Origin: an uncultured bacterium
GTDB taxonomy: Bacteria; Patescibacteriota; Minisyncoccia; Phycocordibacterales; UBA9973
Reading direction: 5' to 3'
NCBI GenBank assembly: GCA_903892035.1
Contig: CAITGV010000001.1
Coordinates: 355,310 to 419,309 of the forward strand
DNA length: 64,000 nt
A program made the position numbers and the translations under genes. The notes below the pieces were generated by a model. The model made no database searches. It saw nothing but the letters and a program-made list of their open reading frames with translations, and had not been told where the DNA came from. Positions 2,441 through 58,850 of this stretch are shown here, piece by piece (positions within the stretch are counted from its first letter, which is position 1; each line of letters begins with the position of its first letter).

Positions 2441-2673
2441 CTTGGCAGGCGGGGCAGATGGCAAAAGATCCAGATTTTAAAAATCCTTCCGGCGGGCATT
2501 AAAAACCAAAACCCCGAATTTTTAAGCTTGGAAAATGGGGCAAAATGTGGGAGACAAGTTATCCCCATTGACTGTGAACGGTAGTTTACAGTATACTTAG
2601 ACTGTAGTCGTTAAAATAATATTATAATAATCTTAAGTATTTGTAGTAAAAATTTGCTACAATAAATAAACAC

Positions 2674-3597
2674 ATGAAAACACCACTTAACTATACAGGC
2701 AATAAGTCACGATTAATGGATCAATTTAAAAATCATTTTCCAAAAGATGTTAACGTGTTTGTTGATTTATTTTGTGGTGGTGCAACTGTCGGTTTGAGTG
2801 TAGATGCAAAAAAGGTTATTTTTATAGATAACAATATTAATGTAATTAATCTACTAAAGCATCTATCAAAATATAATTTTGATACACTACTACTCAGATT
2901 AGAAACATTGGTGGAAAAATATGGTCTATCTTACTCAGCTAAGCATGGTTATAAAAAATACAAAAAACTATCCGGAGAGACTGATAATAACGGATTTAAG
3001 GAATATAATACATTGGGTTATTACAAACTACGCTCAGATTACAACTCAGTAAAAGATAAGTCTTCCAAAGAAGCGTGCGACCTCCTCTATCTTTTGGTTG
3101 TCTATGCTTTCAATAACGATATGCGTTTCAATAGAAGTGGGGAATTTAACCTACCTATTGGCAAGACTGATTTAAATAAAAATAATATAGAGAAACTAAA
3201 ACAGTATATTGATAGAGTTAAAAAGATAGATTGTGATTTTATATGTGGTGATTTCAGAGAGGAAAATATAAAAAAGATTTTAATGGATGCAGATTTTATT
3301 TATGCTGATCCACCTTATCTGATAGGTAATGCTGTTTATAATGAAACAAGTAACTGGACAGAACAAACAGAACAGGAACTTATCGATTTATTAGAGTTGT
3401 TGAATAAAAGCAAAAAGAGGTTTGCAGTTTCAAATGTTTTAGATAAAGTCGGGGCATCAAATAAACCACTGTCTGATTGGTTGTTTAATCGAAACGATCT
3501 TCATATAGTTGACATTGATTACCACTATAGGGGTGCCAGTTATAATAAAATCAATAGAGCCGCAAGAGAAAGAGAAGTATTGATAAAAAATTTCTAA
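2674..3597 (+). CDS. D12-class N6-adenine DNA methyltransferase (Dam-like)
   Basis: N-terminal NYTGNKSRL and FVDLFCGGATVG (AdoMet-binding motif I), and a DPPY catalytic motif (ADPPYL). This order is typical of MethyltransfD12 family enzymes. Confidence 0.8.
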   Translation: MKTPLNYTGNKSRLMDQFKNHFPKDVNVFVDLFCGGATVGLSVDAKKVIFIDNNINVINLLKHLSKYNFDTLLLRLETLVEKYGLSYSAKHGYKKYKKLSGETDNNGFKEYNTLGYYKLRSDYNSVKDKSSKEACDLLYLLVVYAFNNDMRFNRSGEFNLPIGKTDLNKNNIEKLKQYIDRVKKIDCDFICGDFREENIKKILMDADFIYADPPYLIGNAVYNETSNWTEQTEQELIDLLELLNKSKKRFAVSNVLDKVGASNKPLSDWLFNRNDLHIVDIDYHYRGASYNKINRAAREREVLIKNF

Positions 3598-3601
3598 TTG
3601 T

Positions 3602-4612
3602 ATGGACTTATTGATTGGGAATAGAAGATACACAGGAAGCAAAAAAGCTCTCCTTGAAGATATTTATACAAGTATCAGTCCTTACCCTAAAGGAAGGATT
3701 GTATTTGCTGACTTATTTGCTGGTACTGGAATAGTGTCTGCCTTCATGCTTGGGAAGGGAATGAGTGTTATTGTAAATGATTTTTTGCAGTCGAATTATA
3801 TAGCATATCAAGCTTGGTTTGGATGTGGAGATTATAGTAAAAAAAAACTTGAGCGGATTATTGCTGAATTTAACTCCCTAAATAGCAGTAAGCTAAAAGA
3901 AAATTATTTCTCTAAGATTTACGGCAATAAATACTTTTCTGTATCTGATGCTAAAAAAATAGGATATATAAGAGAAAAACTCGAAAAAATAAAACTTACA
4001 AAGCGTGAAAAAAGCATACTAGTAACTTCACTCATGTACGCAACCGACAAGATTGCTAATACTGTCGGACATTTTGAGCATTTTCTTTCAAAAAAACCTC
4101 AAGATAAGGGAGTTTTATTGAAATTACCACATATTGAGCCATTTATTGGAAATGCAACAATATACAAAATGGATGCTAATAAACTTGCACGTGAGATTAC
4201 TTGTGATATTGCGTATATTGACCCGCCCTATAATGCTCGCCAGTATGTAAATTTTTACCACGTTCTGGAAAACTTAGTGCAGTGGGATAAACCAACTGAG
4301 TTTGAAGGAACTTCAATGAAGTTTAAAAGAAATCATTTAAAAAGTGATTACTCAAAGTCAAAAGCACCTATGGTTTTCAAAGATCTAATTGATAATTTAC
4401 AAGCAAAGTTAATTGTGGTATCGTATAATAACACTTACTCCGCAAAGAGTAGTGCCTCTAATAATAAAATATCTGAATCCCAGTTATTAGATATTCTTTC
4501 GTCTAAAGGTAAAGTCACGGTTAGCGAAATCAAACACAGGTCTTTTAATAGCGGTAAAACAGACTTCAAGGATCATAAAGAAATCTTATATATCTGTAAA
4601 ACAAATTTATGA
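3602..4612 (+). CDS. second D12-class N6-adenine DNA methyltransferase
   Basis: RYTGSKKAL, FADLFAGTG and DPPYNAR motifs. Lies immediately downstream of the first MTase and overlaps the next ORF by 4 nt (ATGA). Confidence 0.75.
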   Translation: MDLLIGNRRYTGSKKALLEDIYTSISPYPKGRIVFADLFAGTGIVSAFMLGKGMSVIVNDFLQSNYIAYQAWFGCGDYSKKKLERIIAEFNSLNSSKLKENYFSKIYGNKYFSVSDAKKIGYIREKLEKIKLTKREKSILVTSLMYATDKIANTVGHFEHFLSKKPQDKGVLLKLPHIEPFIGNATIYKMDANKLAREITCDIAYIDPPYNARQYVNFYHVLENLVQWDKPTEFEGTSMKFKRNHLKSDYSKSKAPMVFKDLIDNLQAKLIVVSYNNTYSAKSSASNNKISESQLLDILSSKGKVTVSEIKHRSFNSGKTDFKDHKEILYICKTNL

Positions 4613-6015
4613 GTTTATTACAAACATATATAGAAAGAAATAAAAATCATGAGTGGTTTGCTAAATATTTTTCTTTAGGAAAAGGTAGTAGTGGTCGTTT
4701 GTTTGAGTATACTAACACTAATTTTAGAGAGCAAAAATCTTTTTTTGAGCAATTTAAAAAATTTGAAAAGATTGAAGATAAAGAAAGGAAAGACTGGGGA
4801 TTAGTTGAATCTAGTGGACAAGAAAAAGATAAGCAGAGAGTTGTAAATATGCTTGCCTCGAAGCTTTTTATGAGGGAGTTAAAAGGCGCAAGAAGGTCTA
4901 AAAATTTTATTTTTCATAAGACCAAAAAAGGTGCAATATACCACAAGTTTTTAAGTGAAAATTTCTCCGAACCAGAAAAGTGGTTTCTAAATTACCTATT
5001 TTTATTGGATGGTCATTATACAAACGAGGAGAGATATATAATCAAAAGAACCAATTTACTTCATCAGAAAATGTCGGCGGTTATTTTAAATACAGAAGCA
5101 TTAATAAGAAAAATAGAAGAAGTTATTGATAAGTCATACAATAAATATGAGTTGATAAAAAAAGATTTTTTCTACCTTAGTTCTTTTTACGATGACGCAG
5201 AATTTTTAGAACTATATTTACATTCAAATGATTTAGAAAAAAAAGAATTGCATGACTATATAAGTAAAAATTTAAAAGAAAAAAATGATGCATGTTGTAT
5301 ATCTAAAAAATATAAACCCAAGAGTAATTTTAATGCGGGTACTTTTATCGATGAAAGTAAGGTATTTTACTTCACTCTTATTTTAGAACAAGTAAAAAAT
5401 AATAATATAAGCAATGTGGTAACTCAATTATTGAGAAAGTATACTTTTATATATAAAAAAACAAATGTCAAAAAAGTCAAAAGTTTTATTGACGAAAAGT
5501 TTGCATTGGATATTTTTTATGCAGTATTTGTTAACGTTCTTGATATAAAAGAAGAACTAACAGAGGAAACTCGCGTAGCAGTAGAGGGGATGGAACTAGA
5601 AGAAGTCGGTCCTCAGAATTATATAGATGATACTACAATTGAAGGAAGGAGGATAACAAAACAATTATTTACACTTAAGAAAAAAAGAGCAAGAGAAATT
5701 GCTAATTATAAGTGTTCTCTAGAGAAACTGAATAATTGTAGATATTTCACTAATAAAGTAAGCAATAAGCCATATATTGAGGTTAATCATCTTATACCGC
5801 AAGAATTTAGGAATGAATTTTCTAATTCAATTGAGGTTTTTGCTAATTATACTGCCATATGTCCTCACTGCCACGCAATGTTACATAAGGCGGTAGATAA
5901 TGAAAGAAAACCATTAATAAATTATTTATACAATGAGAGATCAGCCAAATTAGAAGCCATGGGCATAGGTGTTGAATTAAAAACACTGTATGAATTTTAT
6001 AGAATTAATATTTAA
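4609..6015 (+). CDS. HNH-nuclease domain protein, putative restriction endonuclease of the R-M system
   Basis: C-terminal HNH motif (NHLIP...N...CPHCHAMLH). Translationally coupled to the upstream MTases. The roughly 380-aa N-terminal region has no recognisable motif. Confidence 0.55.
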   Translation: MSLLQTYIERNKNHEWFAKYFSLGKGSSGRLFEYTNTNFREQKSFFEQFKKFEKIEDKERKDWGLVESSGQEKDKQRVVNMLASKLFMRELKGARRSKNFIFHKTKKGAIYHKFLSENFSEPEKWFLNYLFLLDGHYTNEERYIIKRTNLLHQKMSAVILNTEALIRKIEEVIDKSYNKYELIKKDFFYLSSFYDDAEFLELYLHSNDLEKKELHDYISKNLKEKNDACCISKKYKPKSNFNAGTFIDESKVFYFTLILEQVKNNNISNVVTQLLRKYTFIYKKTNVKKVKSFIDEKFALDIFYAVFVNVLDIKEELTEETRVAVEGMELEEVGPQNYIDDTTIEGRRITKQLFTLKKKRAREIANYKCSLEKLNNCRYFTNKVSNKPYIEVNHLIPQEFRNEFSNSIEVFANYTAICPHCHAMLHKAVDNERKPLINYLYNERSAKLEAMGIGVELKTLYEFYRINI

Positions 6016-6124
6016 AAGAAAATAAAACTTATAAATAGAAGAAGACTCCAACTAGGAATATGGGTCAATGTGTGTTATTGTTTTAATATATAAAACCTAT
6101 TATTATTTTAACTATTTAAGCATT

Positions 6125-7822
6125 ATGGAATTAATTAAAAGTTCGTCAAGAAGAAATGTAGATAATTTGTTTAATTCTTCTACAGAAATTTATAAAATAC
6201 CTGATTATCAAAGAGATTATAAATGGACAACCGACGAAGCTGAACAATTTTTAGAAGATTTCTCAAATGCTGATTTTTTTGAACCACAGTACTTGGGAGT
6301 TATTGTAACAAATTCGTCACAAACTAAGTATCGAACGTTTGACGAAATTGAAGTTATTGATGGACAACAAAGACTAACTACATTATTTTTAATATTTTTA
6401 GCAATAAGAAAATTTGCCAAAGATAACAATAATGATTCTTTGGTTATAACCTTAGATCAAAAATTAATATCACACGAAGAACTGCATCAGATTTATAAAA
6501 TTAAAACTCATAAATATTTACAAGATTTTTTTGATGCTGCATTTAATTATAAAAGTGGCTCGGCGCTTAAAGGAAAAACCGTCAAAAAAGTATATGAAGC
6601 AATTTATAATTACATTTCAACATATATAAAACCTGATCGTTTGAAAGATTTTTATTTAGCAGTTATAAAATCGGAGTTCGTTTACATTGAAATAGGGAAT
6701 GCTTCTCCTTTTGAAATTTTTGAGCGAATGAATTACCGCGGTATGGATCTGGCAGTATCTGATTTATTAAAGAATAAATTATTTTTACAGGCACACAAGA
6801 CTGACGATTTAGAAAATATGAAAGAGCATTGGGATAAAATAATAGATGACGCAGGAAGGGTCACTGACAACATAAATAAACTTAGTTTTTCTGCCTTAAT
6901 TCGCTATTTCTATATTTCAAGATTTGGATACATAACAGAAAAAAAATTATATGGTAAATTAGTTGATCAATATAATACACATTATAAGGATAATTTAAAT
7001 ATATTTATTGAAGATTTTGAATCGGTAATTAAATTGCTCTTAATATTATCAAAAAAAAGAAATGAATTATCTTCTGAGGAAATTAAGAGTCTACCAGGTA
7101 GAAATTCTGAGAGAGGTTATTTAAGAACGATATTATCCCTGAAGACTTTTGGAGTTATTCAACCATATTCGCTACTTCTTTCGTTGTTTGCAAAAGAACG
7201 TAATTTAGATTTAAGAAATTGGTTAAATAGAATTGAAGTGTTTCATTTTGTCTATTCATATATTTCGAATGGTCCCGCCCGTGAATTTGAGAAGAAATAT
7301 TCTGAAACTGCAAAAAATGTATTTAATGCAGAGTCAGATAATGACGTTCAAGCTGAATTGAATAACTTTGTTAATGATTTAGGTATTCTGATAAATAAGA
7401 CCACGACAAAGGAAAAATTTATTAGTGATGTTTCGTCTAAGTTGGTTTACGGTTCGGACAGTGATGCAATCAAATTTTTTTATGAATATATCGAAGAAGA
7501 ATATTTTGGAAGAAATCTACAGGGAATTACATTTATAAATAATCCGCAAATTTCGTTAGACCATATTTGTCCTCAAAATGAAAAAGAAGACCATAGTTTA
7601 GGCAATTTAATTGTTTTAGAAACTGATATTAATCAACAACTTCAAGATGCTAGCTATAAAATAAAAAAGGAAAAGATTCTTTCTGGTAGTGGAATTAGTA
7701 TTACAAAAGAACTATTTAATAAATATGATAATTGGGGGGAAGATCAAATTAATGATTGGGGTAAGTATATTGCTTCTATTTTTTGGGACGAAATCGTTAT
7801 TAAGTATTTTAATCTAAGGTAA
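6125..7822 (+). CDS. DUF262/DUF1524 (GmrSD-like) type IV restriction-type nuclease
   Basis: N-terminal ParB/DUF262 motifs (IPDYQRDYKW, IDGQQRLTT) and C-terminal DUF1524 His-Me finger (LDHICPQ...GNLIVLE). The in-frame ORF begins at 6068, but the likely start is the Met at 6125 (MELIKSS). Confidence 0.7.
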   Translation: MELIKSSSRRNVDNLFNSSTEIYKIPDYQRDYKWTTDEAEQFLEDFSNADFFEPQYLGVIVTNSSQTKYRTFDEIEVIDGQQRLTTLFLIFLAIRKFAKDNNNDSLVITLDQKLISHEELHQIYKIKTHKYLQDFFDAAFNYKSGSALKGKTVKKVYEAIYNYISTYIKPDRLKDFYLAVIKSEFVYIEIGNASPFEIFERMNYRGMDLAVSDLLKNKLFLQAHKTDDLENMKEHWDKIIDDAGRVTDNINKLSFSALIRYFYISRFGYITEKKLYGKLVDQYNTHYKDNLNIFIEDFESVIKLLLILSKKRNELSSEEIKSLPGRNSERGYLRTILSLKTFGVIQPYSLLLSLFAKERNLDLRNWLNRIEVFHFVYSYISNGPAREFEKKYSETAKNVFNAESDNDVQAELNNFVNDLGILINKTTTKEKFISDVSSKLVYGSDSDAIKFFYEYIEEEYFGRNLQGITFINNPQISLDHICPQNEKEDHSLGNLIVLETDINQQLQDASYKIKKEKILSGSGISITKELFNKYDNWGEDQINDWGKYIASIFWDEIVIKYFNLR

Positions 7823-8698: not shown

Positions 8699-9814
8699 TT
8701 ATATTTTTTTCCTTCTTAATATAAAAAAATAGTAAAGAATTGCAATAATAATAATAGTTATTTGACCAGGGTAGCGAGTGCTTAAAGTATACGGTAAAGC
8801 AATGAATGCGAGTGACTTGCTCGGGCGCTTGCTTTCTCTATAAGCTATAATTTTTTTCATTTGTTCTTCATTTTTAGCTTTTACTGTAGCGAGTTCTTCT
8901 GGGCTTAGTTGAACTGATTCGCCATTTTTATCGTATTTAAATTCTGGTAATATTGGAAACATGGCTTTTTCAGCTTGAAAATCTTTAAGGAAAGTGGATT
9001 CAGATTTATTTTCGATGGGTTGTATTGCAAGTCTAAGTGGTAAACCCAAGAACATTGTTGCGTATGAGATCGGAGGTACGTAAGACAATAATAAGATAAT
9101 AAGAACTATTGGAATATAGTAAGGGTATTTTTTTCTTTTATTTGCTTGCTGGATTATAGTATTTTTTTTAAATTTAATTTTTCTAACTATAAAGATAAAG
9201 AAAATAATAAGTGCAATAATAAAACCAAAAACTATCATTTGATTATATATATAGCCAAGTGATAAAGAGTCTGCAAATGCTCCTTGTTTGAGAGTTCCTT
9301 TGAAGGGAACAACCTCCTTGATATTTTTTCCTGTAAAATATTTACCAGTTCCTATTTCTGTGTAAAATGGTGGGTGTGTATCAAAAAGCTTCATCCCGCT
9401 CATTGGCCCAGGTAACAGTAGTTGTGGTAAAAAATATTCTTTCTTTACCTGAACAATACTGTCTTTTGGTAATATCGTTTGTTGTTGTCCAACAGAACCG
9501 AGTTTGTAATCTCTATCTAATTGTATTTGTCCCGTAGCTGAATTTACACCTGAACTCGCGGTGTTAATGAATAAAAAAATTGTAATTACAAAAAAAGCTA
9601 TTGTTGCGCATAGTATAATTATCCATTTTTTATTCGACGTGTTATTTATCGGCTCTGGCACGATTATATTTTCTGGGATAATTTCAGAAAATGCTTCTTC
9701 TATATCTGCTTCGTTCCAGTTGCTTTGTTGTCTCAGTGTAGCTTTGATCTCATCTTTAGTTTTTCCTACAGCAAGTGAGTTTTTAATATAATCAACAAAT
9801 TCTTTTGTAATCAT
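8699..9814 (-). CDS. hypothetical membrane protein
   Basis: 371-aa ORF with a soluble N-terminal region followed by TM helices. No motif recognised. Confidence 0.4.
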   Translation of the reverse strand: MITKEFVDYIKNSLAVGKTKDEIKATLRQQSNWNEADIEEAFSEIIPENIIVPEPINNTSNKKWIIILCATIAFFVITIFLFINTASSGVNSATGQIQLDRDYKLGSVGQQQTILPKDSIVQVKKEYFLPQLLLPGPMSGMKLFDTHPPFYTEIGTGKYFTGKNIKEVVPFKGTLKQGAFADSLSLGYIYNQMIVFGFIIALIIFFIFIVRKIKFKKNTIIQQANKRKKYPYYIPIVLIILLLSYVPPISYATMFLGLPLRLAIQPIENKSESTFLKDFQAEKAMFPILPEFKYDKNGESVQLSPEELATVKAKNEEQMKKIIAYRESKRPSKSLAFIALPYTLSTRYPGQITIIIIAILYYFFILRRKKI

Positions 9815-9939: not shown

Positions 9940-10290
9940 ATGGAATATTGGATCAAGAGACTTTCTCATCCACTCCGAGGACTGAAATATGCCTTTACTC
10001 GCGATTTTGCTATTCAGTTTGAAACAATAGTTTTTGGAATTATTGGTTTACCACTCGTGTATTTTTTATTCAAACTTTCAGCCAAAGAATTACTTCTACT
10101 TATATTTTGTTGGTTTTTTATTGTTGTTACTGAAATTCAAAATTCGTCTATTGAAATAGCTCTTACCAAACTTCACCCAGAGAACGATGAGGCGATTGGA
10201 CGAAGCAAAGACCTTGCTTCGGCAGCTGTCGTGTGGGCATTTATATTCGGACTCATTTGTTTATTGTTTGTAATAAGTGGAAAAATTTAA
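9940..10290 (+). CDS. dgkA: diacylglycerol kinase family protein
   Basis: About 116 aa with three TM helices and a DgkA-like pattern (E..NS.IE, DLASAAVVWAF). Confidence 0.6.
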   Translation: MEYWIKRLSHPLRGLKYAFTRDFAIQFETIVFGIIGLPLVYFLFKLSAKELLLLIFCWFFIVVTEIQNSSIEIALTKLHPENDEAIGRSKDLASAAVVWAFIFGLICLLFVISGKI

Positions 10291-10325
10291 AAAAGTAGAA
10301 ATGCAAACAAGAGTTAGTTATCCAC

Positions 10326-10359
10326 AAATATCTTGTGAACATATGTTCACAAGATATTT
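10326..10359. promoter_or_regulatory. LexA box (perfect Cheo box GAACATATGTTC inside a 34-nt perfect palindrome)
   Basis: aaatatcttgtgaacatatgttcacaagatattt, lying 22 nt upstream of the ATG of the RhuM/Doc gene. Confidence 0.65.
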
Positions 10360-10380
10360 GTTTGGTGGTAAAATTAAAGT

Positions 10381-11379
10381 ATGAAAAAGAAAATCGTAGA
10401 AAAAAAGAATAATAAAAATGGTTTGGTAATCTATCAGGCAAAATCTGGAGCAATTGAGCTCCGGGGAGATATTAGTAAGGAGACTATTTGGGCGACACAA
10501 GCTCAAATTATAAAGTTATTTGGAATTGACCAATCTGTTGTGTCTAGACACATTAAAAATGTCTTTAAAGATAAGGAAATTGACCTAAGAAGCAATATGC
10601 AAAAAATGCATATTGCAAATTCAGACAAACCAGTGATTCTGTATTCATTAGATGTTATTCTTGCCGTTGGATATCGCACAAATTCAAAAACTGCTATTGA
10701 TTTTCGAAGATGGGCCACAAAGACTCTTAAAGAATATCTTGTTCAGGGATATGTTGTAAATGAAAAGCGTCTGCTTGAAGCCAAAGAGAATTTCAATAAA
10801 TTACAAAATACGATTGCATTTCTTAATGAAAAATCACACAAGGAATTACTTTCTGGGCAAGGTAAAGAGATTTTGGATTTGCTTGGTTCGTATGCCAAGA
10901 CACTCACATTGCTCGATGAGTATGATAGAGGCGAGCTCAGTTCCGCAAAAGGCACAAAAGGTAAATTTGTTATTTCATATGAACATTGTTTGGAAGTAAT
11001 TATCGAAGTCAGGAATGAACTTGCAAACAAAGGAGAAGCGAGTGAGCTTTTTGGTTGTGAGCGAGATGGTTCGTTTGGGGGAATTATCAAAGGGCTTTAT
11101 CAAACATTTGGTGGAAAGGAGTTATATTCAACTCTTGAAATAAAAGCTGCACATATCTTGTATTTGATTATAAAAGATCATCCTTTTTCTGATGGGAACA
11201 AAAGAATGGGTTCATTTCTCTTTGTGTATTTCTTAGACAAAAACAATGCTCTATATCGTGAACATGGTGAGAAGAAAATTAATGACAATGCGCTCGCTTC
11301 GCTCGCGCTTCTAATTGCCGAAAGCGATCCTAATGAAAAAGATCAAATGATTGCACTTATTACACAATTGTTGAAGTAA
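10381..11379 (+). CDS. RhuM-family / Fic-Doc domain protein (Doc-type motif HPFSDGNKR)
   Basis: The C-terminal motif HPFSDGNKR matches the Doc-subfamily signature Hx[FY]x[DN]GNKR. The N-terminal region resembles RhuM-like proteins. Confidence 0.6.
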   Translation: MKKKIVEKKNNKNGLVIYQAKSGAIELRGDISKETIWATQAQIIKLFGIDQSVVSRHIKNVFKDKEIDLRSNMQKMHIANSDKPVILYSLDVILAVGYRTNSKTAIDFRRWATKTLKEYLVQGYVVNEKRLLEAKENFNKLQNTIAFLNEKSHKELLSGQGKEILDLLGSYAKTLTLLDEYDRGELSSAKGTKGKFVISYEHCLEVIIEVRNELANKGEASELFGCERDGSFGGIIKGLYQTFGGKELYSTLEIKAAHILYLIIKDHPFSDGNKRMGSFLFVYFLDKNNALYREHGEKKINDNALASLALLIAESDPNEKDQMIALITQLLK

Positions 11380-11408: not shown

Positions 11409-11900
11409 ATGAGTACTAAAAAAACATATTTGGCAGGAGGGTGTTTCTGGGGATTGGAAGAATTGATGCGAAGTCAGCCTGGGGTGAAAAATATTATCGC
11501 TGGTTACGCTGGTGGGACGAATGAAAATCCAACTTACGAAAATCATCCAGGTCATGCGGAAGCATTAGAGATTGAATACGATACAGAAGTCACAAGCTTT
11601 TGGAAACTTTTGGATTTCTTTTTTCAGATTCACAATCCAACGACAAAGAATCAACAGGGGAATGATATTGGTGATTCGTATCGAAGCGCGATTTTTTATC
11701 AAAACGATGAAGAATTGCAAAAAGCAAAGGATTTTATAAAAATCGTCAACGATTCAAAGCGTTGGGATGCTCCAGTGGTCACGACACTTGAGCCTTTTAC
11801 AAAGTTTTGGCCAGCAGAAGACTATCATCAAGACTATTTGCAAAGGAATCCTGGTGGCTACACCTGCCACGCAATTTATTTCGATAGTTATTTGGATTAA
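11409..11900 (+). CDS. msrA: peptide-methionine (S)-S-oxide reductase MsrA
   Basis: GCFWG active-site motif near the N-terminus, followed by the typical MsrA core. Confidence 0.85.
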   Translation: MSTKKTYLAGGCFWGLEELMRSQPGVKNIIAGYAGGTNENPTYENHPGHAEALEIEYDTEVTSFWKLLDFFFQIHNPTTKNQQGNDIGDSYRSAIFYQNDEELQKAKDFIKIVNDSKRWDAPVVTTLEPFTKFWPAEDYHQDYLQRNPGGYTCHAIYFDSYLD

Positions 11901-11943
11901 ATATTTCCGAAAATAAAATCACAAATTGTGATAATATCAGCTC

Positions 11944-12288
11944 ATGAGAGTCTGGGATATACATCCGAAACATTTGTGTAGAAAGCATTTGCTCGCCGAA
12001 CATCGTGAGCTTCATGGGCTTTGGAATATTTTGACGAAACATGGCGGAGTGGGTGGATATTCGAGACACCCAGAGACTTTGCGTTGGGTGGGCAAGACTC
12101 GTGCATTATATTTGCGTCACGAAATGCTCGTGCAAGAATTTATACGTCGTGGATACAAGCATCATACTCCACTTGATAAAAAGTTGGCAAAAGGTTCTGC
12201 GAATCAGAGTGTGTTTATAAACACCGCTCGTGAACAAAAAGAAATTTTGAAAAATAAAATGTGCGAATGTTTACTAGATATGCACTAA
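11944..12288 (+). CDS. pyrimidine-dimer DNA glycosylase-like protein (Pyr_excise-like)
   Basis: N-terminal MR.WDIHPK.L....LLAEHRELH pattern resembling the endonuclease V/denV-like family. Assigned by motif resemblance only. Confidence 0.4.
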   Translation: MRVWDIHPKHLCRKHLLAEHRELHGLWNILTKHGGVGGYSRHPETLRWVGKTRALYLRHEMLVQEFIRRGYKHHTPLDKKLAKGSANQSVFINTAREQKEILKNKMCECLLDMH

Positions 12289-12880: not shown

Positions 12881-12910
12881 TTGACTGTGAACGACTGTTC
12901 ACGTTATAAT
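12881..12910 (+). promoter_or_regulatory. promoter with embedded LexA box (TTGACT-GTGAACGACTGTTCAC-TATAAT)
   Basis: -35 TTGACT at 12881-12886, GAAC-N4-GTTC at 12889-12900, -10 TATAAT at 12905-12910. Lies 7 nt before the ORF at 12917. Confidence 0.6.
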
Positions 12911-12916
12911 ATTTGA

Positions 12917-14026
12917 ATGACAAATATTTTTTCTAGAAATTTGTTTGGAATTTTTTTAATAATAATATTAACAATTATTTTTCCAACACAGAGTTTCGCT
13001 TCATATCATTTTTCAAATTTTCGTGGACGTCCACCGATTCATGTTTATAAAACTACCGGCAGTATTCCGATGGGTATGACACCAGCGATGATAAAAAATA
13101 TTTATATTTTACCCGCAAGTGGCGGACAGGGAACTATCGCTATCGTTGGTGCATACGATGATACAAGTATTGAAAAAGATTTGGTAGATTTTAGTAAGAC
13201 TTTTAATTTAACATCGTGTACTGTTTCAAATGGTTGTTTTGAAAAACATAAAATGTCTTCAAAAATAAAAGCTGATAGCAATTGGGCTCTTGAGACAACT
13301 CTCGATGTAGAGTGGGCTCACGCGATAGCACCACAGGCAAAAATCTTACTAGTCGAAGCGGTGACGCCATCGGGAGCTAACCTTTTGAATGCAGTAGATT
13401 ATGCATCAAAAAGAAATGATGTATCGGCAATATCGATGAGCTGGGGCGGAAGTGAATTTCCAGAAGAAGTAAATTTGGATCCACATTTTAAAAGTATTTC
13501 TGGTGCGAAGTATTTTGCTTCGTCGGGAGACAATGGCACGGGGGCGTCGTGGCCAGCTTCATCACCAGATGTTATTGCTGTCGGAGGTACGACACTTGTT
13601 TTAAATAGTAATGGAAATGTTTCAAAAGAAATTGCATGGTCTGGATCGGGTGGTGGCATATCTCAATATGAAAAAGCTCCAACGTATCAAAAAGATTATT
13701 CAATTTCAAAAAGTGGCGGCATGCGCGCAATTCCAGATGTGGCGTACGACGCAGATCCGAAATCTGGCTTTCCAATAATTCGTGGTGGGGTGTGGCGTAC
13801 TGTTGGTGGCACTTCAGCCGGTGCCCCACAATGGGCAGCAATTTCCACTCTTGGTTCGGGTGCAAGTAATGATAATTTTTATTCCGACAAAGCTGGTTCA
13901 AATAGTAGTTCTTATTTTCGTGATATTACAAGTGGAGCAAATGGCGATTGTGGCTACGTGTGCAATGCTCGTAAACATTATGATTTTGTGACAGGACTAG
14001 GGACTCCAAAGACTGTAAACTTTTAG
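12917..14026 (+). CDS. secreted S53/S8-like serine peptidase
   Basis: N-terminal signal/TM segment and a GGTSAGAP motif around the catalytic Ser (sedolisin/subtilisin-like). Confidence 0.5.
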   Translation: MTNIFSRNLFGIFLIIILTIIFPTQSFASYHFSNFRGRPPIHVYKTTGSIPMGMTPAMIKNIYILPASGGQGTIAIVGAYDDTSIEKDLVDFSKTFNLTSCTVSNGCFEKHKMSSKIKADSNWALETTLDVEWAHAIAPQAKILLVEAVTPSGANLLNAVDYASKRNDVSAISMSWGGSEFPEEVNLDPHFKSISGAKYFASSGDNGTGASWPASSPDVIAVGGTTLVLNSNGNVSKEIAWSGSGGGISQYEKAPTYQKDYSISKSGGMRAIPDVAYDADPKSGFPIIRGGVWRTVGGTSAGAPQWAAISTLGSGASNDNFYSDKAGSNSSSYFRDITSGANGDCGYVCNARKHYDFVTGLGTPKTVNF

Positions 14027-14887: not shown

Positions 14888-14917
14888 TTGCATTGTGAAC
14901 AATCGTTCACGTATAAT
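14888..14917 (+). promoter_or_regulatory. promoter with embedded LexA box upstream of dinB
   Basis: -35 TTGCAT, GAACAATCGTTC at 14897-14908, -10 TATAAT at 14912-14917. Confidence 0.65.
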
Positions 14918-14923
14918 GTAGGA

Positions 14924-16180
14924 ATGAATGAAGAGGGAATAGAGAAAAAGCAAAAAGAGAGAATATTTTTTCATATGGATGGTGATGCATTTTTTGTCGG
15001 TGTAGAAATAGCTAAGAATCCAAAATTGAAAGGCTTGCCCGTGGTGACCGGAGAAGAGCGGGGAATTGTCTCTGCACTTTCGTATGAAGCCAAAGCGCTC
15101 GGCATCACACGAGGAATGCCAGTTTTTCGTCTAAAAAAAGAATTTCCAAATGTAATAATTCTTGCCGGAGATTATAAATCATACGCAGAGTATTCGAGTA
15201 GGATGTTTGAAATAGTTCGTCGATATGCGGATGATGTAGAAGAGTACAGCATCGATGAATGTTTTGCCGACCTCACAGGGCTTGATTCGACTTTGTATAT
15301 GAGCTATTTGCAAATTGCACAGAGAATAAAAAAAGAAGTAAATAGTGAACTTGGACTTTCTGTTTCAGTCGGTCTTGCACCGACAAAAGTTCTCGCTAAG
15401 GTTGCTTCGAAATGGGTCAAGCCTGATGGGTTGACGGAAATACGAAAAGAAAATGCCCCAAATTTTTTGTCGAAAACGCCAATAGAAAAAATTTGGGGCC
15501 TTGGTCTGCAAACTTCAACTTTCTTAAAAATAAAAAAAGTTTTTACAGCATTGGATTTTATAAATAAAGATTTGTCTTGGGTGAAAAGAAATTTATCTGC
15601 TCCATATGAGACTATATGGTACGAACTTCGGGGGATTAGGATAATGAGCATTAATCCAGAGCTGAAAATAATTTATTCATCAATACAAAAGACGCGAAGT
15701 TTCCACCCCTCGACAAACGAGAAAAATTTTCTTTTCTCTGAACTCTCAAAACATATTGAAGATGCGTGTAGAAAGGCTCGCCACTACCACCTTGTGCCAA
15801 AAAAAATTTCATTTTTTCTTAAAACAACAAATTTTAAATTCATAACTTTTTCACAAAAAATTTTAATACCAGCAAATTCTCCTGAAGATTATATTTCACT
15901 CGCATATGTGTGGCTCAAAAATTTAGAAAAAACAAAAACACTTTACCGCACGACCGGTGTGACCTTGCACGACTTAGCGTACGATACATTTACGCAAGCA
16001 GATTTATTTGGTCACGGAGAAAAAATTGATAAATTGAAAATAATACACAAACAAATTGATAAATTGGAAAATAAACTTGGTAAAAGATTTGTGCATCTAG
16101 GTTCAAGCCACAAATCACTTTCACGCGAAATGCTTGGCACTGAGCCAGACGAAATAGATCGAAATTTATTATTTTTATAA
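14924..16180 (+). CDS. dinB: DNA polymerase IV (Y-family)
   Basis: Signature FFHMDGDAFFVGVE near the N-terminus, plus SIDECFADLTG. Length and order fit DinB. The start is uncertain: the ORF begins at 14888 with TTG, and the first ATG is at 14924. Confidence 0.8.
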   Translation: MNEEGIEKKQKERIFFHMDGDAFFVGVEIAKNPKLKGLPVVTGEERGIVSALSYEAKALGITRGMPVFRLKKEFPNVIILAGDYKSYAEYSSRMFEIVRRYADDVEEYSIDECFADLTGLDSTLYMSYLQIAQRIKKEVNSELGLSVSVGLAPTKVLAKVASKWVKPDGLTEIRKENAPNFLSKTPIEKIWGLGLQTSTFLKIKKVFTALDFINKDLSWVKRNLSAPYETIWYELRGIRIMSINPELKIIYSSIQKTRSFHPSTNEKNFLFSELSKHIEDACRKARHYHLVPKKISFFLKTTNFKFITFSQKILIPANSPEDYISLAYVWLKNLEKTKTLYRTTGVTLHDLAYDTFTQADLFGHGEKIDKLKIIHKQIDKLENKLGKRFVHLGSSHKSLSREMLGTEPDEIDRNLLFL

Positions 16181-16324: not shown

Positions 16325-16421
16325 AGATATTTATAATTAAGTTAATAATATTACTTACAATATAAATGCCGTAAGATAACTAAATATATTACAAAATAAA
16401 TAGTTATCCACAGTATTTTTC

Positions 16422-16450
16422 TTGACTGTGAACATGCGTTCACATATAAT
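16422..16450 (+). promoter_or_regulatory. promoter with embedded LexA box upstream of the lexA operon
   Basis: -35 TTGACT at 16422-16427, GAACATGCGTTC at 16430-16441, -10 TATAAT at 16445-16450. Confidence 0.7.
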
Positions 16451-16488: not shown

Positions 16489-16683
16489 ATGTCAAAAGAT
16501 CAATATATAGTCGCCCTTGAGCGCGAACTCACAAAGCTCAACAAACAAATTGATTTAAAAATAATTCGAGGGGAGAATTATTCATTCGAATCTCGCAAGC
16601 ACAAAATGCTAAAAGAGATTTCAAAGAAATATAAAAAGCCCACTTTCTTTGCACATATATTTCCAATGATGTTAAAATACTAA
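16489..16683 (+). CDS. small hypothetical protein co-transcribed with lexA
   Basis: 64-aa ORF between the LexA-box promoter and lexA. Its stop lies 1 nt from the lexA start. Confidence 0.35.
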   Translation: MSKDQYIVALERELTKLNKQIDLKIIRGENYSFESRKHKMLKEISKKYKKPTFFAHIFPMMLKY

Positions 16684-16684
16684 T

Positions 16685-17251
16685 ATGAAAAACGAATACC
16701 AAAATAAAATTGAAAACTTCCATTCGCGACAGAAAAGAATGCCTACGTACTCCGAAATGATGAAGCTCTTTGGTTTCAAATCTAAAAATGCAGTTTACAG
16801 GGTAGTTGAGAAGCTTATGGATGCAGGGCTAGTGGCAAAAGACCACCTTGGTCGCCTGGTGCCAACAAAAAGTTTTGGAGAGATTCCTATGCTCGGTTCT
16901 GTGACTGCGGGATTCCCAGCAACAGTCGAAGAAGAGCGACATGAGACGATGAATATCGACGATTATCTTGTTGAAAAAAAGGATTCTACATATATGCTTG
17001 AAGTTGATGGTGACTCTATGATCGATGCTCATATTGAAGATGGAGATATGGTCCTAGTCGAACGCACAGACAAAGCCAAAGATGGGCAGATAGTCATAGC
17101 ATATATCGATGGGGAATTTACAATGAAATATTTCCGTAAAAATGCTGACGACGTCTGGCTTGAACCTGCAAATAAAAAATATAAAAACATTTACCCAAAG
17201 CATGACCTTCAGATCACTGCGGTGGTAAAGGCTGTCATACGCAAATACTAG
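16685..17251 (+). CDS. lexA: LexA repressor (S24 peptidase)
   Basis: N-terminal wHTH, an Ala-Gly cleavage site (VTAGFP), and the Ser and Lys catalytic residues in VDGDSM...K context. Confidence 0.85.
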   Translation: MKNEYQNKIENFHSRQKRMPTYSEMMKLFGFKSKNAVYRVVEKLMDAGLVAKDHLGRLVPTKSFGEIPMLGSVTAGFPATVEEERHETMNIDDYLVEKKDSTYMLEVDGDSMIDAHIEDGDMVLVERTDKAKDGQIVIAYIDGEFTMKYFRKNADDVWLEPANKKYKNIYPKHDLQITAVVKAVIRKY

Positions 17252-17758: not shown

Positions 17759-20700
17759 ATGCTATTATCAGAAAATATGGAAGAGAATTCAGACAATAAA
17801 TCACAAATAGCAAAACGCGAAGAAAAGATTTTGGCATATTGGCAAGAGAACAATACTTTCAGAAAAAGTTTGGAAAAAGAGGCGCCAAAAGGGAATTACG
17901 TTTTTTATGATGGACCACCTTTTGCGACAGGTTTACCACACTACGGGCACATACTCGGAAGTACTGCTAAGGACGTGATTGGTCGCTATCAGACGATGCA
18001 GGGTTTTAAGGTGCCAAGAAAATGGGGTTGGGATTGTCACGGCCTGCCGATCGAGCACATTATAGAAAAAGAATTAAAAATTTCTGGACATAAAGAAATT
18101 GAAGAATACGGAATTGAAAAATTTACAGAATATGCGCGAAGTAAAGTTTTGACCTATGTGCATGATTGGAAGAGGACAGTAGACCGCATCGGGCGCTGGG
18201 TGGATTTTGATAATGGTTACAAGACAATGGACAACACTTTCATCGAAAGTGTATGGTGGGCACTTGGAGAGCTTAATAAAAAAAGTTTGGTATATGAAGG
18301 TGTGCGAGTACTTGCTTACTGTCCACGTTGCGAGACACCAATAGCAAATTCGGAAATTGCAATGGACAATAGTTATAAAGACATTACAGATATTTCTGTA
18401 TTTGTGAAGTTTCCTTTGATTGAAGATCCAAATACATATTTGGTAGCCTGGACTACAACGCCTTGGTCACTTCCTGGTGATACTGCTCTTGCTGTAAACA
18501 AAGAAATAAAATATATAAAAATTTTACACGAAGGTGCGTACTATGTTATTGCAAAAGAGCGAGCACCTTTTGTTCCGGTACTCAAGGATATTGCTCTAGT
18601 AGAAGGGGAAAATTATGAAGAAGTAAATGTCGAAGATTTGATTGGTAAATCATACATACCACCTTTTAAGTATTATGAAAATACTGAAATGCCAAATAAA
18701 GAAAATATTTGGAAGATTTGGCATGCGGACTTTGTCACGATAGATGCAGGTACGGGCATTGCGCACGAAGCTCCAGCTTTTGGAGAAGAAGATATGGATC
18801 TAGCAAAAAAGAATAATATTCCATTTATTAATCATGTAACTGTGGATGGAAAATTTGCATCAGAAGTTCTTGATTTTGCTGGTGAAAAAATAAAACCAAA
18901 AGAAGATCACCAAAGTGGTGATGTACTCATAATCAAATATTTGGCAAAAGCTGGAACTCTTTTTGCAAAAGAAAAAATAATTCACTCATACCCGCACTGT
19001 TATCGTTGTGAGACACCACTTTTCTACTATGCTCTTCCATCGTGGTTTGTAAATGTGCAGAAAGTAAAAAATAAAATGCTTGAAAATGCCAAAGAAATGA
19101 ATTGGATTCCAGGGCATTTAAAAGAAGGGCGTTTTCAAAATATTATGGAAAATGCTCCAGATTGGAACATTTCCCGCAATCGCTACTGGGCGAGTCCTTT
19201 GCCTATTTGGAAATCAGAATCAGGTAAGCTTTTATTTGTATCGAGTGTAGAAGATTTGAAAAATAAAACAAAAAAATCTGGAAATAAATATTTTATAATG
19301 CGCCACGGAGAATCAACTCATAATACAGAAGGAATTTGTAGTTCTGTGGTAGATTACCCGCATCATCTTACAGAAGAAGGGAAGAAAATCGTTGGTGAAA
19401 ATGCAGAATTATTAAAAACAAAAAATATTACAACAATATATTGTTCACCTTACGTTCGTACAAAAGAAACCGCTGAAATAGTAGCAAATACAATTGGTTT
19501 TGATAAAACAAAAATAATTTACGATGAAAGAATTGAAGAATTTAAATTTGGGGATTTCAATATGAAGCCCATGAAAGAATATTTGAAATGGAGAGAAAAA
19601 GTGGGTAATACAGTCAATCTCTGTCCTCCAAATGGTGAAAGTGTTGTTGATTCACGTCATCGTTTTTCTAAATTTTATTATGATATTGATGAAAAACTTA
19701 CAAATCAAAATGTTCTTGTTATTTCTCACGGTATAGCACTTGAGGTTATGGAAGGAATTGATAATGGTTATAGTGATGAAATTATGTGGAAAAATTGGAA
19801 AATGAACAGCGTTGCGCCGGGGCATTTTAAAGAATTTAATTTCACACCATTGCCACATAATAAAAATTTTGAACTTGATTTACATAGACCATATATAGAC
19901 AACATTGTTTTGACCGATGGTGCAGAAGAGTATCATCGTGTGCCTGAAGTTATGGACTGTTGGTTTGAGTCAGGCTCAATGCCTTTTGCGCAAGACCACT
20001 ATCCCTTCGACTTCGCTCAGGGTAAACCCTTTGAAGGTGTTGATTGGAAAAAATTAAATTTCCCAGCAGGTTTTGTTGCAGAATACATAGCGCAGACACG
20101 TACATGGTTTTACTATTCACATACACTTTCGACTATGCTTTTTGATCACGCACCATTTAAAAATGTCGTAACGACAGGAACACTGCTCGCTTCCGATGGA
20201 CAGAAAATGTCGAAGTCGAAAGGAAATTATCCTGACCCATGGATTATCTTTAATAAATTTGGAGTTGATCCGCTACGTTTTTATTTGATGTCATCACCTT
20301 TGATGAAAGGCGAGGATACAAATTTTATGGAAAAAAGTGTTCAAGATATTTCAAGTAAAATTATTTCTCGCATGGACAACGTTGTGGCGTTTTATGAATT
20401 GTATAGAGATAATGAATTAGAGAATAAATTGGTAAATTCAAAGAATGTCCTCGATATTTGGATTCTTGCTCGACTCGAGCAGTGTGTGAGTGAAGTGACG
20501 GCTGGAATGGAGGCGTACGATATGGCTCTAGCTTCAAGACCTTTTGAATTATTTATCGAAGATCTTTCGACTTGGTATTTGCGTCGTTCACGTGAACGCA
20601 TAAAAGACGGTGATGCGGGAGCAAAAGCTACACTATATTTTGTATTGAAAACAGTGGCGACAATTATCGCACCGCTGACGCCATTTCTCGCTGAAGATAT

Positions 20701-21223
20701 TTGGCAAAAATTGAAATTGGATAATGACCCAGAAAGTGTTCATCTAACAACTTGGCCACTAGGAAGGACCGTCCTTGCTAGTGATGTGGTTAAAGAAATG
20801 CAAAATACTCGAGATTTAGTTTCGCTTGGACTTCAGGCAAGACAAAAAACTGGAATTCCAGTTCGACAACCTCTACAGAAGTTGAAAGTTAAAAGTATAA
20901 AGTTGAACGAAGATTACATCGAATTAATTAAAGAGGAATTAAACGTAAAAGAAGTTGTAGAAGATATAAAAATAGAAAATACTGTTGAACTCGATACTGA
21001 AATTACTCCAGAACTAAAACGAGAAGGGGACTATCGTGAGCTTGTGCGAGCTGTGCAAGAGCTACGAAAAAATTCTGGACTCACTCCGAGTGACATAATA
21101 GTTCTCACGATGCCTCTAAATACAAAAGAAATTGTCGCAGGTTTTGAAGACGATATGAAAAAAACAGTACTCGCAACTGAAATTCTATTTGAAGGTGAAG
21201 AAATGAAAGTTGTGGTAAAATAG
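17759..21223 (+). CDS. ileS: isoleucyl-tRNA synthetase (type 2) with inserted histidine-phosphatase domain
   Basis: PPFATGLPHYGH (HIGH region), WTTTPWSLP and KMSKSKGN motifs. An RHG histidine-phosphatase-like segment (MRHGESTHN ... VISHGIA) is inserted between WNISRNRYW and DLHRPYID. Confidence 0.85.
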   Translation: MLLSENMEENSDNKSQIAKREEKILAYWQENNTFRKSLEKEAPKGNYVFYDGPPFATGLPHYGHILGSTAKDVIGRYQTMQGFKVPRKWGWDCHGLPIEHIIEKELKISGHKEIEEYGIEKFTEYARSKVLTYVHDWKRTVDRIGRWVDFDNGYKTMDNTFIESVWWALGELNKKSLVYEGVRVLAYCPRCETPIANSEIAMDNSYKDITDISVFVKFPLIEDPNTYLVAWTTTPWSLPGDTALAVNKEIKYIKILHEGAYYVIAKERAPFVPVLKDIALVEGENYEEVNVEDLIGKSYIPPFKYYENTEMPNKENIWKIWHADFVTIDAGTGIAHEAPAFGEEDMDLAKKNNIPFINHVTVDGKFASEVLDFAGEKIKPKEDHQSGDVLIIKYLAKAGTLFAKEKIIHSYPHCYRCETPLFYYALPSWFVNVQKVKNKMLENAKEMNWIPGHLKEGRFQNIMENAPDWNISRNRYWASPLPIWKSESGKLLFVSSVEDLKNKTKKSGNKYFIMRHGESTHNTEGICSSVVDYPHHLTEEGKKIVGENAELLKTKNITTIYCSPYVRTKETAEIVANTIGFDKTKIIYDERIEEFKFGDFNMKPMKEYLKWREKVGNTVNLCPPNGESVVDSRHRFSKFYYDIDEKLTNQNVLVISHGIALEVMEGIDNGYSDEIMWKNWKMNSVAPGHFKEFNFTPLPHNKNFELDLHRPYIDNIVLTDGAEEYHRVPEVMDCWFESGSMPFAQDHYPFDFAQGKPFEGVDWKKLNFPAGFVAEYIAQTRTWFYYSHTLSTMLFDHAPFKNVVTTGTLLASDGQKMSKSKGNYPDPWIIFNKFGVDPLRFYLMSSPLMKGEDTNFMEKSVQDISSKIISRMDNVVAFYELYRDNELENKLVNSKNVLDIWILARLEQCVSEVTAGMEAYDMALASRPFELFIEDLSTWYLRRSRERIKDGDAGAKATLYFVLKTVATIIAPLTPFLAEDIWQKLKLDNDPESVHLTTWPLGRTVLASDVVKEMQNTRDLVSLGLQARQKTGIPVRQPLQKLKVKSIKLNEDYIELIKEELNVKEVVEDIKIENTVELDTEITPELKREGDYRELVRAVQELRKNSGLTPSDIIVLTMPLNTKEIVAGFEDDMKKTVLATEILFEGEEMKVVVK

Positions 21224-35855: not shown

Positions 35856-36902
35856 TTATTCCCCAGCGCTTGATGTTTGAATTTCTCCAAAGCGCGCACG
35901 GACTTGTTTTTCAAGTTCCTTTGCAACTTTTGTATTTTCGCGTAGCCACACTCGAGTCGCATCATAACCGCGACCCATAGGAATTTTTTCATTATCTTTA
36001 TCACGATATGAATACGAAGCACCAGATTTTTCTACGATGCCAAGTTTTTCTCCAAGAGCCATCAGTTCACCTTCGTGAGAAATTCCTTCACCGTAAATAA
36101 TATCGAATTCTGTTTGTTTGAAAGGGGAGGCAACTTTATTTTTCACAACCTTTACGCGTGTACGCCCACCGACAACTTCTTCACCTTTTTTAATTTGCGC
36201 AATGCGACGAATGTCGAGACGTATTGATGTGTAAAATTTCAAAGCTTTTCCACCTGGAGTAGTTTCAGGGTTTCCAAACATCACACCAATTTGCATTCTG
36301 ATTTGATTTATAAATATAACAATAGTTTTTGAGCGAGCGACAATAGCTGTGAGTTTTCGAAGCGCTTGCGACATAAGGCGAGCTTGTTTACCCATGTGCT
36401 GCTGGCCCATATCGCCCTCAATTTCGTCTTTTGGAGTAAGTGCTGCGACAGAGTCGATGACAACGACGTCGATTTTTCCAGAGCGTACCAAAGACTCTGT
36501 AATTTCAAGACCTTGTTCTCCAGTGTCTGGTTGGGCGATGAGAAGGTCGTTAATATTCACGCCGAGGTTCTTTGCATATGTTGGGTCCATTGCGTGCTCT
36601 GCGTCGATATATGCGCATACGCCACCTTTCTTTTGAGCCTCAGCGACTATATGTAGAGCGAGTGTGGTTTTTCCAGATGATTCTGGTCCAAAGATTTCAA
36701 TAATGCGTCCTCTTGGTACTCCACCGACTCCGAGAGCCATATCGAGACCCAAAGATCCAGTAGGCACGACATCTATATCGACTTTTGGAGCGTCACCAAG
36801 TTTCATTATTGCTCCTTCTCCAAATTTTGTTTGAATCGACTTAATTGTATCTTCAATCTCTGCACCCATTTCCTTTTTTGCTTTTTCTTTTTTCTTTATC
36901 AT
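35856..36902 (-). CDS. recA: recombinase RecA
   Basis: Walker [10 protein letters not shown] and the highly conserved RecA core ([17 protein letters not shown]..., IDAEHA). Confidence 0.9.
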
Positions 36903-55192: not shown

Positions 55193-55396
55193 CAGAACGA
55201 TCATTCATTAATAAATAAATCCTGTTGCACACAAAAATTATTTCTTCCAAAGTAAGAATTTATTTTTTATTTTGGTGGGTCTTTGAGCCGTGTGTAAACA
55301 GAACCTCGAAGTTTTTATTTTTTTCGCCAAGCGGTTGGTATCAGAGAAATAAAAACTTCGAAAAACGAAAATTGTGATTTTTAAATTTCCTAATAG

Positions 55397-58850
<3,454 letters not shown>

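Follow-up and report, generated by a model that had tools for sequence, protein, structure and literature searches.

What does a long perfect palindrome do directly in front of a gene for a two-domain RhuM-Doc protein, in a genome of the candidate phyla radiation (CPR)? The question is posed by a stretch of 64,000 nucleotides (nt), here called the window: positions 355,310 to 419,309 (forward strand) of contig CAITGV010000001.1, GenBank assembly GCA_903892035.1, from an uncultured bacterium placed in the Patescibacteriota (Minisyncoccia; Phycocordibacterales; UBA9973). The gene, RhuM-Doc, occupies 10381..11379 on the + strand and encodes 332 amino acids (aa) that match the Pfam families Virulence_RhuM and Fic. 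We consider it probable that this is a LexA-repressed, leaderless, single-gene locus in a Paceibacteria/Nomurabacteria-like genome, and the predicted control circuit makes DNA damage the very probable trigger of its expression. The regulatory half of this reading is as well supported as sequence analysis permits, with what appears to be a complete RecA/LexA switch in the window. For the effector half, in which Doc-type phosphotransfer would bring about growth arrest or defence, we infer the activity, target and toxicity of the enzyme from homology and context only.

The first-pass annotation of this DNA had reported a 34-nt perfect palindrome with a LexA consensus core, 22 nt upstream of the gene. 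Its interpretation is borne out on every point open to sequence analysis. The palindrome is real and longer. Positions 10326-10359 (34 nt), 10325-10360 (36 nt) and 10324-10361 (38 nt) each equal their own reverse complement, 10323-10362 does not, and no longer perfect palindrome exists in the window. The distance to the ATG at 10381 needed correction: it measures 21 nt from the 34-nt version or 19 nt from the 38-nt version. The centre of the full palindrome, ACAAATATCTTGTGAACATATGTTCACAAGATATTTGT, is GAACATATGTTC (10337-10348), which has the GAAC-N4-GTTC core of the Gram-positive, or Cheo-box, type of LexA operator. The 16 nt around it, GTGAACATATGTTCAC (10335..10350), form a predicted LexA operator that fits the longer pattern GTGAAC-N4-GTTCAC; it is strand-neutral, as are the whole palindrome and the boxes described below.

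Both patterns are over-represented. The window has four copies of GAAC-N4-GTTC where 0.8 would be expected, a count reached in one of 100 shuffles, while the 16-mer pattern also occurs four times, against 0.00 expected, and was absent from all 100 shuffles. The four 16-mer copies are confined to 6.1 kb and each lies in a promoter, namely those of the lexA operon, dinB, a sedolisin-like peptidase gene and RhuM-Doc. LexA motifs are classically assigned by such a combination, a lexA gene under its own repressor and a translesion polymerase gene under the same control. The open reading frame (ORF) at 16685..17251 (+ strand, 188 aa), already named LexA in the first-pass annotation, scores 133.7 bits with TIGR00498 lexA (cut-off 110.95). 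An Ala-Gly cleavage site, VTAGFP, and the catalytic motifs GDSM and TMKY can be read in its sequence, and the protein is apparently cleavable. A small conserved ORF of 64 aa (16489..16683, + strand) directly precedes lexA and shares its LexA-box promoter, TTGACT-GTGAACATGCGTTCAC-A-TATAAT (16422..16450, + strand; box at 16428-16443). The dinB gene (14924..16180; Pfam IMS and IMS_C; top NCBIfam matches all DNA polymerase IV models, all under their curated cut-offs) has its box at 14895..14910 within TTGCAT-T-GTGAACAATCGTTCAC-G-TATAAT, followed after 6 nt by the ATG at 14924.

The same arrangement extends to relatives. LexA proteins 72-80% identical to that of the window are common among Paceibacteria and Nomurabacteria metagenome-assembled genomes (MAGs), and a small ORF (62-70 aa, no family match) adjoins the 5' end of lexA, sharing the LexA-box promoter, in the window and in loci L173-L184. 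Two independent sets of these loci repeat the layout of the window's lexA promoter (-35, box, 1 nt, -10): TTGACA-GTGAACGAGCGTTCAC-T-TATACT in L173/L176, with the full 16-mer pattern, and TTGACA-ATGAACGCTCGTTCAC-C-TATACT in L182/L184, one change from it (ATGAAC). On this comparison GTGAAC-N4-GTTCAC is the LexA operator of the clade. The consensus core first noted in the palindrome thus holds up, as its GAAC-N4-GTTC pattern is found also in the lexA and dinB promoters of the window and in the lexA promoters of related Paceibacteria.

How the operator would act is suggested by the promoter that it overlaps. A consensus promoter scan gave a predicted sigma-70-type promoter at 10346..10374 (+ strand) with a -35 hexamer TTCACA (10346-10351), a 17-nt spacer and an extended -10 element TGgTAAAAT (10366-10374), matching 10 of 12 consensus positions in addition to the TG extension. 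The -35 hexamer lies inside the right half-site of the LexA box, and by this anatomy bound LexA would occlude the -35 region. Relative to a start at 10381 the box spans -46 to -31; the boxes of the other three SOS promoters take up the spacer. The -10 element ends exactly 6 nt before the ATG, and transcription is predicted to start at or near the A of that ATG, giving a leaderless mRNA. In a crude set of 58 window ORFs, 18 genes, RhuM-Doc among them, have a -10 hexamer (at least five of six positions) exactly 6 nt before the ATG, with at most five genes at any other offset, and many leaderless mRNAs are therefore probable in this organism. These 18 hexamers often carry a TG extension. An alternative promoter, P2 (ATCTTG-17-GATATT), which would have the box in its spacer, is possible; it was set aside as the poorer match (by eye about 6 of 12 positions) and as breaking the leaderless rule.

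A second genome repeats the association. The family is very large and highly conserved, with at least 7,900 homologues at E <=1e-10 across many phyla. Among the 120 best homologues listed, identities run from 58 to 75% and both Pfam domains are always present; NCBI names relatives 'virulence protein RhuM/Fic/DOC family protein', and annotations in the family also include 'death-on-curing' and 'prophage maintenance killer'. We scanned the upstream regions of about 165 homologue loci (taken from GTDB genomes in 80 cases, from metagenomes in 80 and by exact-protein look-up in 10) for LexA boxes. Locus L001, from a Candidatus Nomurabacteria MAG, encodes a RhuM-Doc protein 66% identical to that of the window, behind the promoter TTGATA-GTGAACAAATGTTCAC-A-TATAAT, again 6 nt from the ATG. 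The LexA box stands alone there, without extended symmetry. The gene follows a type I restriction-modification (R-M) system (HsdR C-terminus, HsdM and HsdS), and the next gene, 486 nt downstream, encodes another Fic protein, followed by an Smr protein. With a different chromosomal place and a different arrangement of box and promoter, L001 reads convincingly as an independent replicate of the link between RhuM-Doc and LexA. A plasmid homologue from Eubacterium eligens was considered as a cultured Gram-positive example and discarded, the gene there being split into two fragments.

What would be induced is a protein with a RhuM/Bro-N-like N-terminus (about aa 1-145), a long helix (aa 103-151), a helical linker and a Doc-like Fic domain (about aa 195-332). 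The first-pass annotation had seen a RhuM-type N-terminus and a Doc-type C-terminal motif, HPFSDGNKR, and both assignments are borne out by profile matches. Virulence_RhuM (PF13310) matches aa 80-144 with 68.4 bits against a cut-off of 33.7, covering positions 16-83 of the 252 in the profile only, and Fic (PF02661) matches aa 233-285 with 41.1 bits against a cut-off of 24. The Doc-type motif is defined as HxFx(D/N)(A/G)NKR. HPFSDGNKR (aa 267-275; 11179..11205, + strand) has Lys where the Fic motif has its second Gly, and it lacks a second Arg at +3; H267, D271, G272, N273, K274 and R275 are unchanged across 43 aligned homologues. The same annotation had proposed a comparison of Doc with canonical Fic profiles, and this came out on the side of Doc: the family profile built on the 43-homologue alignment finds PDB entry 9vzc_A, a 'Death-on-curing family protein', at E 1.2e-4, its HCFYNANKR aligning with HPFSDGNKR, against E 0.14 for the Fic protein 3cuc_A. 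PHROG 577, 'Doc-like toxin', matches at E 1.5e-12.

An AlphaFold2 model has a mean predicted local distance difference test score (pLDDT) of 72, with 80-90 in the C-terminal half, and a predicted TM-score (pTM) of 0.49. Its top PDB neighbour in Foldseek is phage P1 Doc, 3k33_A (TM 0.70, target-normalised; root-mean-square deviation 3.5 Å; probability 1.00). Profiles and model together place the C-terminal domain with Doc rather than with canonical Fic. The modelled N-terminal part consists of three strands, a winged-helix-like unit and a 50-residue helix; it has weak BFVD matches to phage Bro-N, KilA-N and antirepressor proteins, and a weak resemblance in Foldseek to MarR-type winged helices. 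Over its full length the protein matches the PADLOC system PDC-S23 (PDLC04965, E 6.5e-116, aa 11-332 on profile positions 3-324 of 327).

No partner antitoxin ORF accompanies the gene. The spacers of 90 nt upstream and 29 nt downstream hold none, in agreement with the first-pass claim that a Phd-like partner is missing, and the locus does not form a two-gene operon of the phd-doc type. No antitoxin-like ORF stands beside the RhuM-Doc gene in any relative locus examined, and the neighbour genes vary across all of them; HsdM or HsdS is near the gene in 11 of the 99 homologue loci of at least 6 kb. In L186 (4135-5121) the RhuM-Fic gene lies 4-5 nt behind a ksgA-like methyltransferase gene, and in the P0067 locus it lies within an hrcA-grpE...dnaK-dnaJ heat-shock cluster, again 4-5 nt behind another gene. 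Homologues are thus tolerated in housekeeping and heat-shock operons without an antitoxin, so that RhuM-Doc is probably a latent effector rather than a constitutively toxic 'toxin'. In the window the gene is followed, after 29 nt, by msrA, for peptide methionine sulfoxide reductase (11409..11900, + strand; Pfam PMSR 3.5e-57). A scan of this gap found no terminator-like or good promoter-like site, and msrA is possibly co-transcribed with RhuM-Doc.

The perfect symmetry exceeds the 16-bp box by 11 bp on each side, an extension found at none of the other LexA sites, and this flank symmetry is unexplained by LexA. The flanks may form a hairpin that blocks read-through from the upstream gene dgkA (9940..10290), or may be a site for a second regulator. 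Carried further, the palindrome could be mainly or additionally the operator of another repressor, for example of RhuM-Doc autoregulating through its N-terminus as Phd-Doc does, an account that we think unlikely. The flank symmetry fits it, as does the DNA-binding type of fold of the N-terminal domain. Long palindromes are also frequent in homologue promoters: perfect palindromes with arms of at least 9 nt between -50 and -15 occur in 14 of 124, against 3 of 620 shuffles, with some of the 14 resembling terminators of the upstream gene. These palindromes (such as GAACCTGTGCAAAATTTGCACAGGTTC in L082/L169-L171, at -50 to -23, and TAGTGATATAATATCACTA in L136/L069) are, however, unrelated in sequence despite N-terminal domains that are 60-75% identical, which argues against one conserved autoregulator site. 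The core in the window, moreover, fits the GTGAAC-N4-GTTCAC of the lexA and dinB operators, and the L001 box has no extended symmetry. A further palindrome among the homologue promoters is TGTTATAGTGATAGAATATCACTATAACA, and loci with such palindromes also include L013, L119 and L085. The idea that the homologue palindromes (for example TAGTGATATAATATCACTA in L136) are operators of divergent LexA proteins was dropped, since none of them lies upstream of the LexA-like genes in L136 and L053.

LexA control might instead be aimed at repair genes downstream (msrA, perhaps also the pyrimidine-dimer DNA glycosylase gene at 11944..12288), with RhuM-Doc as first cistron or passenger. The short gap to msrA without recognisable terminator or strong promoter would allow this, and many genes for damage repair lie nearby (MsrB, MsrA, Pyr_excise, a YgjP/SprT-like peptidase and dinB). 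We nevertheless give it a small chance: the LexA promoter of L001 drives RhuM-Doc alone, between the R-M system upstream and the gap of 486 nt downstream; a gut-metagenome LexA site validated by electrophoretic mobility shift assay (EMSA) likewise lies upstream of a rhuM gene (PMC3998124); and a -10-like element and a palindrome of its own precede the glycosylase gene. It is very improbable that the palindrome is essentially a terminator or insulator hairpin of dgkA whose likeness to a LexA box is coincidental. It does lie 34 nt past the dgkA stop codon, where the scan found no other terminator for that gene, and as RNA it would form a hairpin of 17 bp (centroid -22.9 kcal/mol, z = -4.96); on a shorter reading of the stem, the U-rich AUAUUUGUUUGG follows it. 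Yet the terminator scan did not call it, the typical terminators of this genome are G+C-rich stems flanked by A/T runs (47525, 50308, 33306), a chance match to all 12 specified operator bases has an expectation of about 0, and L001 repeats the association of box and RhuM-Doc. Uncalled and unlike the genome's terminators, the palindrome was rejected as a terminator in its main role; a secondary role, and thus a dual role as hairpin and operator, is possible.

The LexA-controlled RhuM-Doc locus that we favour has observations of its own weighing against it. The box lies 15 bp further upstream of the start codon than the other three SOS boxes, and repression could therefore be weaker. Among the roughly 165 loci the box occurs in two genomes only, those of the window and L001, so that a family-wide LexA box was rejected; the closest homologues listed (75% identity; L162, L164 and L165) have leaderless promoters without it. 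LexA control would accordingly be a lineage-specific recruitment, not a property of the family. The other, unrelated long palindromes in homologue promoters make a second regulator on the flanks conceivable. On the protein side, NCBIfam TIGR01550 DOC_P1 scores 29.3 bits, under its cut-off of 38.65, which points to a Doc-like domain and not to the strict P1-Doc subfamily; the structure model is of moderate confidence by its pLDDT and pTM, and the Foldseek E-values are weak (0.028). PDC-S23 is a candidate defence system, for which we found neither a published test nor a mention in the literature searched.

Taken with these reservations, a LexA-repressed RhuM-Doc would work as follows. In the undamaged cell a LexA dimer on the box would block RNA polymerase. 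Once DNA was damaged, or a phage or prophage gave rise to single-stranded DNA, RecA would become active and promote self-cleavage of LexA at Ala-Gly, and RhuM-Doc would be transcribed, possibly with msrA. The enzyme could then, as P1 Doc does, transfer phosphate (less likely AMP) to a target of the cell or of an invader, and modification of that target would slow growth or abort the infection. The enzyme would probably stay latent as long as its N-terminal domain has sensed nothing; SOS induction would supply more of a sensor-effector and would free no toxin.

The window holds further promoters of this type. The peptidase gene has its box at 12887..12902 in TTGACT-GTGAACGACTGTTCAC-GT-TATAAT, with the ATG at 12917 after 6 nt, and encodes a kumamolisin/sedolisin-like (S53) peptidase of 369 aa with an N-terminal hydrophobic segment (12917..14026; PDB kumamolisin E 3.4e-22; no Pfam and no NCBIfam match). 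A candidate fifth promoter, TTATCCCCA-TTGACT-GTGAACGGTAGTTTAC-AG-TATACT (2568..2601, + strand), has one mismatch to the 16-mer and lies upstream of an R-M operon (2674..7822) that consists of two D12 N6-adenine methyltransferase genes (2674..4612), a 468-aa ORF with no family match, and the gene for GmrSD, a type IV enzyme (6068..7822). Its assignment is less secure, a second -10-like site being nearer the ATG; if LexA binds there, SOS control of R-M would be unusual. The recA gene (35856..36902, - strand), for the co-protease that LexA cleavage requires, was found by local tblastn, at 62% identity to an E. coli RecA query. No recognisable LexA box precedes it (upstream to 37060), and recA thus seems to lie outside the SOS regulon of this organism.

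Several loci elsewhere bear on these promoters. L053 encodes a 51% identical sedolisin-like peptidase at most 10 kb from a RhuM-Fic gene and a LexA-like gene. In L075, a Saccharibacteria-labelled MAG, positions 8841-8886 read TTGACG-GTGAACGACTGTTCAC-C-TATACT, 6 nt, ATG, at the contig end and 3.3 kb downstream of a RhuM-Fic gene. In L172-L181 (Nomurabacteria, LexA P0167) the genes that come after lexA on its strand are an 89-aa ORF and then N6_Mtase and Methylase_S, another adjacency of lexA and R-M genes.

A second short element accompanies some of these promoters. The DnaA-box-like 9-mer TTATCCACA lies at 10318..10326 (+ strand), 8 nt upstream of the LexA box of RhuM-Doc, its last 3 nt being the first three of the palindrome. 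It has five copies in the window (10318, 16404, 41040, 48430 and 52544), all on the + strand, against 0.67 expected, and four of the five lie just upstream of promoters, those of lexA and RhuM-Doc included. The copy at 16404 precedes the lexA -35 of the window by 9 nt, and the element is kept 8-9 nt upstream of the lexA -35 in the related Paceibacteria loci L173/L176 and L182/L184. In L136 and L053 it lies in inverted orientation upstream of the LexA-like genes. The strict 9-mer alone is enriched; the relaxed DnaA box TTWTNCACA, with 17 copies in the window against 12.3 expected, is not.

These results change no concept, SOS-controlled growth effectors being well known. An operator before one RhuM-Doc gene, repeated in L001 and agreeing with an in-vitro result of 2014 (PMC3998124), would give a testable condition for production of the protein, namely DNA damage. 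The window would also contain a minimal CPR SOS regulon of lexA, dinB, a secreted peptidase, RhuM-Doc and possibly an R-M operon, with recA outside it, and this regulon is apparently defence-flavoured. A broader joint reading, which we regard as doubtful, is that the small SOS regulon of LexA-bearing Paceibacteria is largely an invader alarm and not a repair programme, with LexA directly over a RhuM-Doc sensor-effector, an R-M operon, a secreted sedolisin-like peptidase, dinB and lexA, without recA. Stress regulons would then have taken up RhuM-Doc genes more than once and independently: the SOS regulon in two Paceibacteria, which differ in locus and promoter geometry, and on a Gram-positive scaffold from the gut, and a heat-shock locus in another relative. 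If that were true, the widespread family would generally be a damage- or stress-primed kinase arresting the cell or an infecting element, and the DnaA-box-like element beside SOS promoters would add an input of replication status.

Some other features of the window may be recorded. A 15-nt palindrome at 11917-11931, ATCACAAATTGTGAT, lies over the -10-like TGTGATAAT before the pyrimidine-dimer DNA glycosylase gene, and its arms are akin to the outer LexA-box flanks (TTGTGA / TCACAA) in inverted order. In the isoleucyl-tRNA synthetase (17759..21223, 1154 aa) a His_Phos_1 histidine-phosphatase domain at aa 512-664 splits the catalytic domain. The 23S rRNA match at 55391-58850 spans 3460 nt against a model of 2925 positions, which points to insertions of about 0.5 kb. 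In the intergenic region 2094-2674 (580 nt) G+C-rich hairpins recur (CCTTGCCCCGCAAGG..., GCCCCGCAAGGAGTACCTTGCGGGGC) and an AT-rich palindrome of 34 nt lies at 2368-2401; the region has no Rfam match.

Growth effectors under LexA operators include tisB, symE, yafNO and sulA of E. coli and yneA of B. subtilis. These are small membrane peptides, mRNA interferases and division inhibitors, whereas RhuM-Doc would be a Fic/Doc enzyme with a DNA-binding domain. The SOS network of Patescibacteria has reportedly been treated in a comparative study by Sanchez-Osuna et al. in 2017, as papers citing that study indicate. With Phd-Doc of phage P1 the window gene shares the Doc-type Fic fold and the motif HxFxD(A/G)NKR. 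It differs in having neither Phd nor a two-gene operon, in the fusion of Doc to an N-terminus of about 190 aa of RhuM/DNA-binding type, and in being under predicted LexA control instead of Phd-Doc autoregulation; the EF-Tu kinase activity is a trait of P1 Doc. The likeness to PADLOC PDC-S23 consists in the full-length match, the single gene and the frequent position beside R-M genes, but the PDC-S23 family at large is not LexA-controlled (2 genomes in about 165 loci).

The only experimentally studied protein that we found with the two-domain RhuM+Fic architecture is BifA of Streptococcus equi subsp. zooepidemicus, whose Fic histidine is needed for phosphorylation of the target to appear (PMC6529018). 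BifA is reported to be a secreted virulence factor that acts on host moesin (PMC6529018), and no SOS regulation is reported for bifA. The window organism, in contrast, is a groundwater-type CPR bacterium with nothing pointing to a eukaryotic host.

The nearest precedent comes from Cornish et al. (2014, Bioinformatics 30:1193; PMC3998124), who searched the human gut metagenome for the Gram-positive LexA motif. In their EMSA, LexA of B. subtilis bound TCGAACAAATGTTCGA, a site upstream of a rhuM/death-on-curing gene. They explicitly likened that gene to SOS-regulated toxins and checkpoint effectors, and proposed that HsdS (COG0732), a subunit of type I R-M systems, is a cluster associated with SOS (PMC3998124). 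The two cases share a GAAC-N4-GTTC LexA box before a RhuM/Doc gene, and the R-M link parallels the promoter at 2568-2601. In the gut case, however, which is on a Gram-positive scaffold, 96 nt separate site and gene, and the gene as listed (1346-2191) is shorter than a full RhuM-Doc gene. The window locus belongs to the Patescibacteria, its box is flanked by GT/AC and not by TC/GA, and the box overlies the -35 of a predicted leaderless promoter within a 38-nt palindrome. Given this precedent, the locus adds a clear new example to a kind of system already known.

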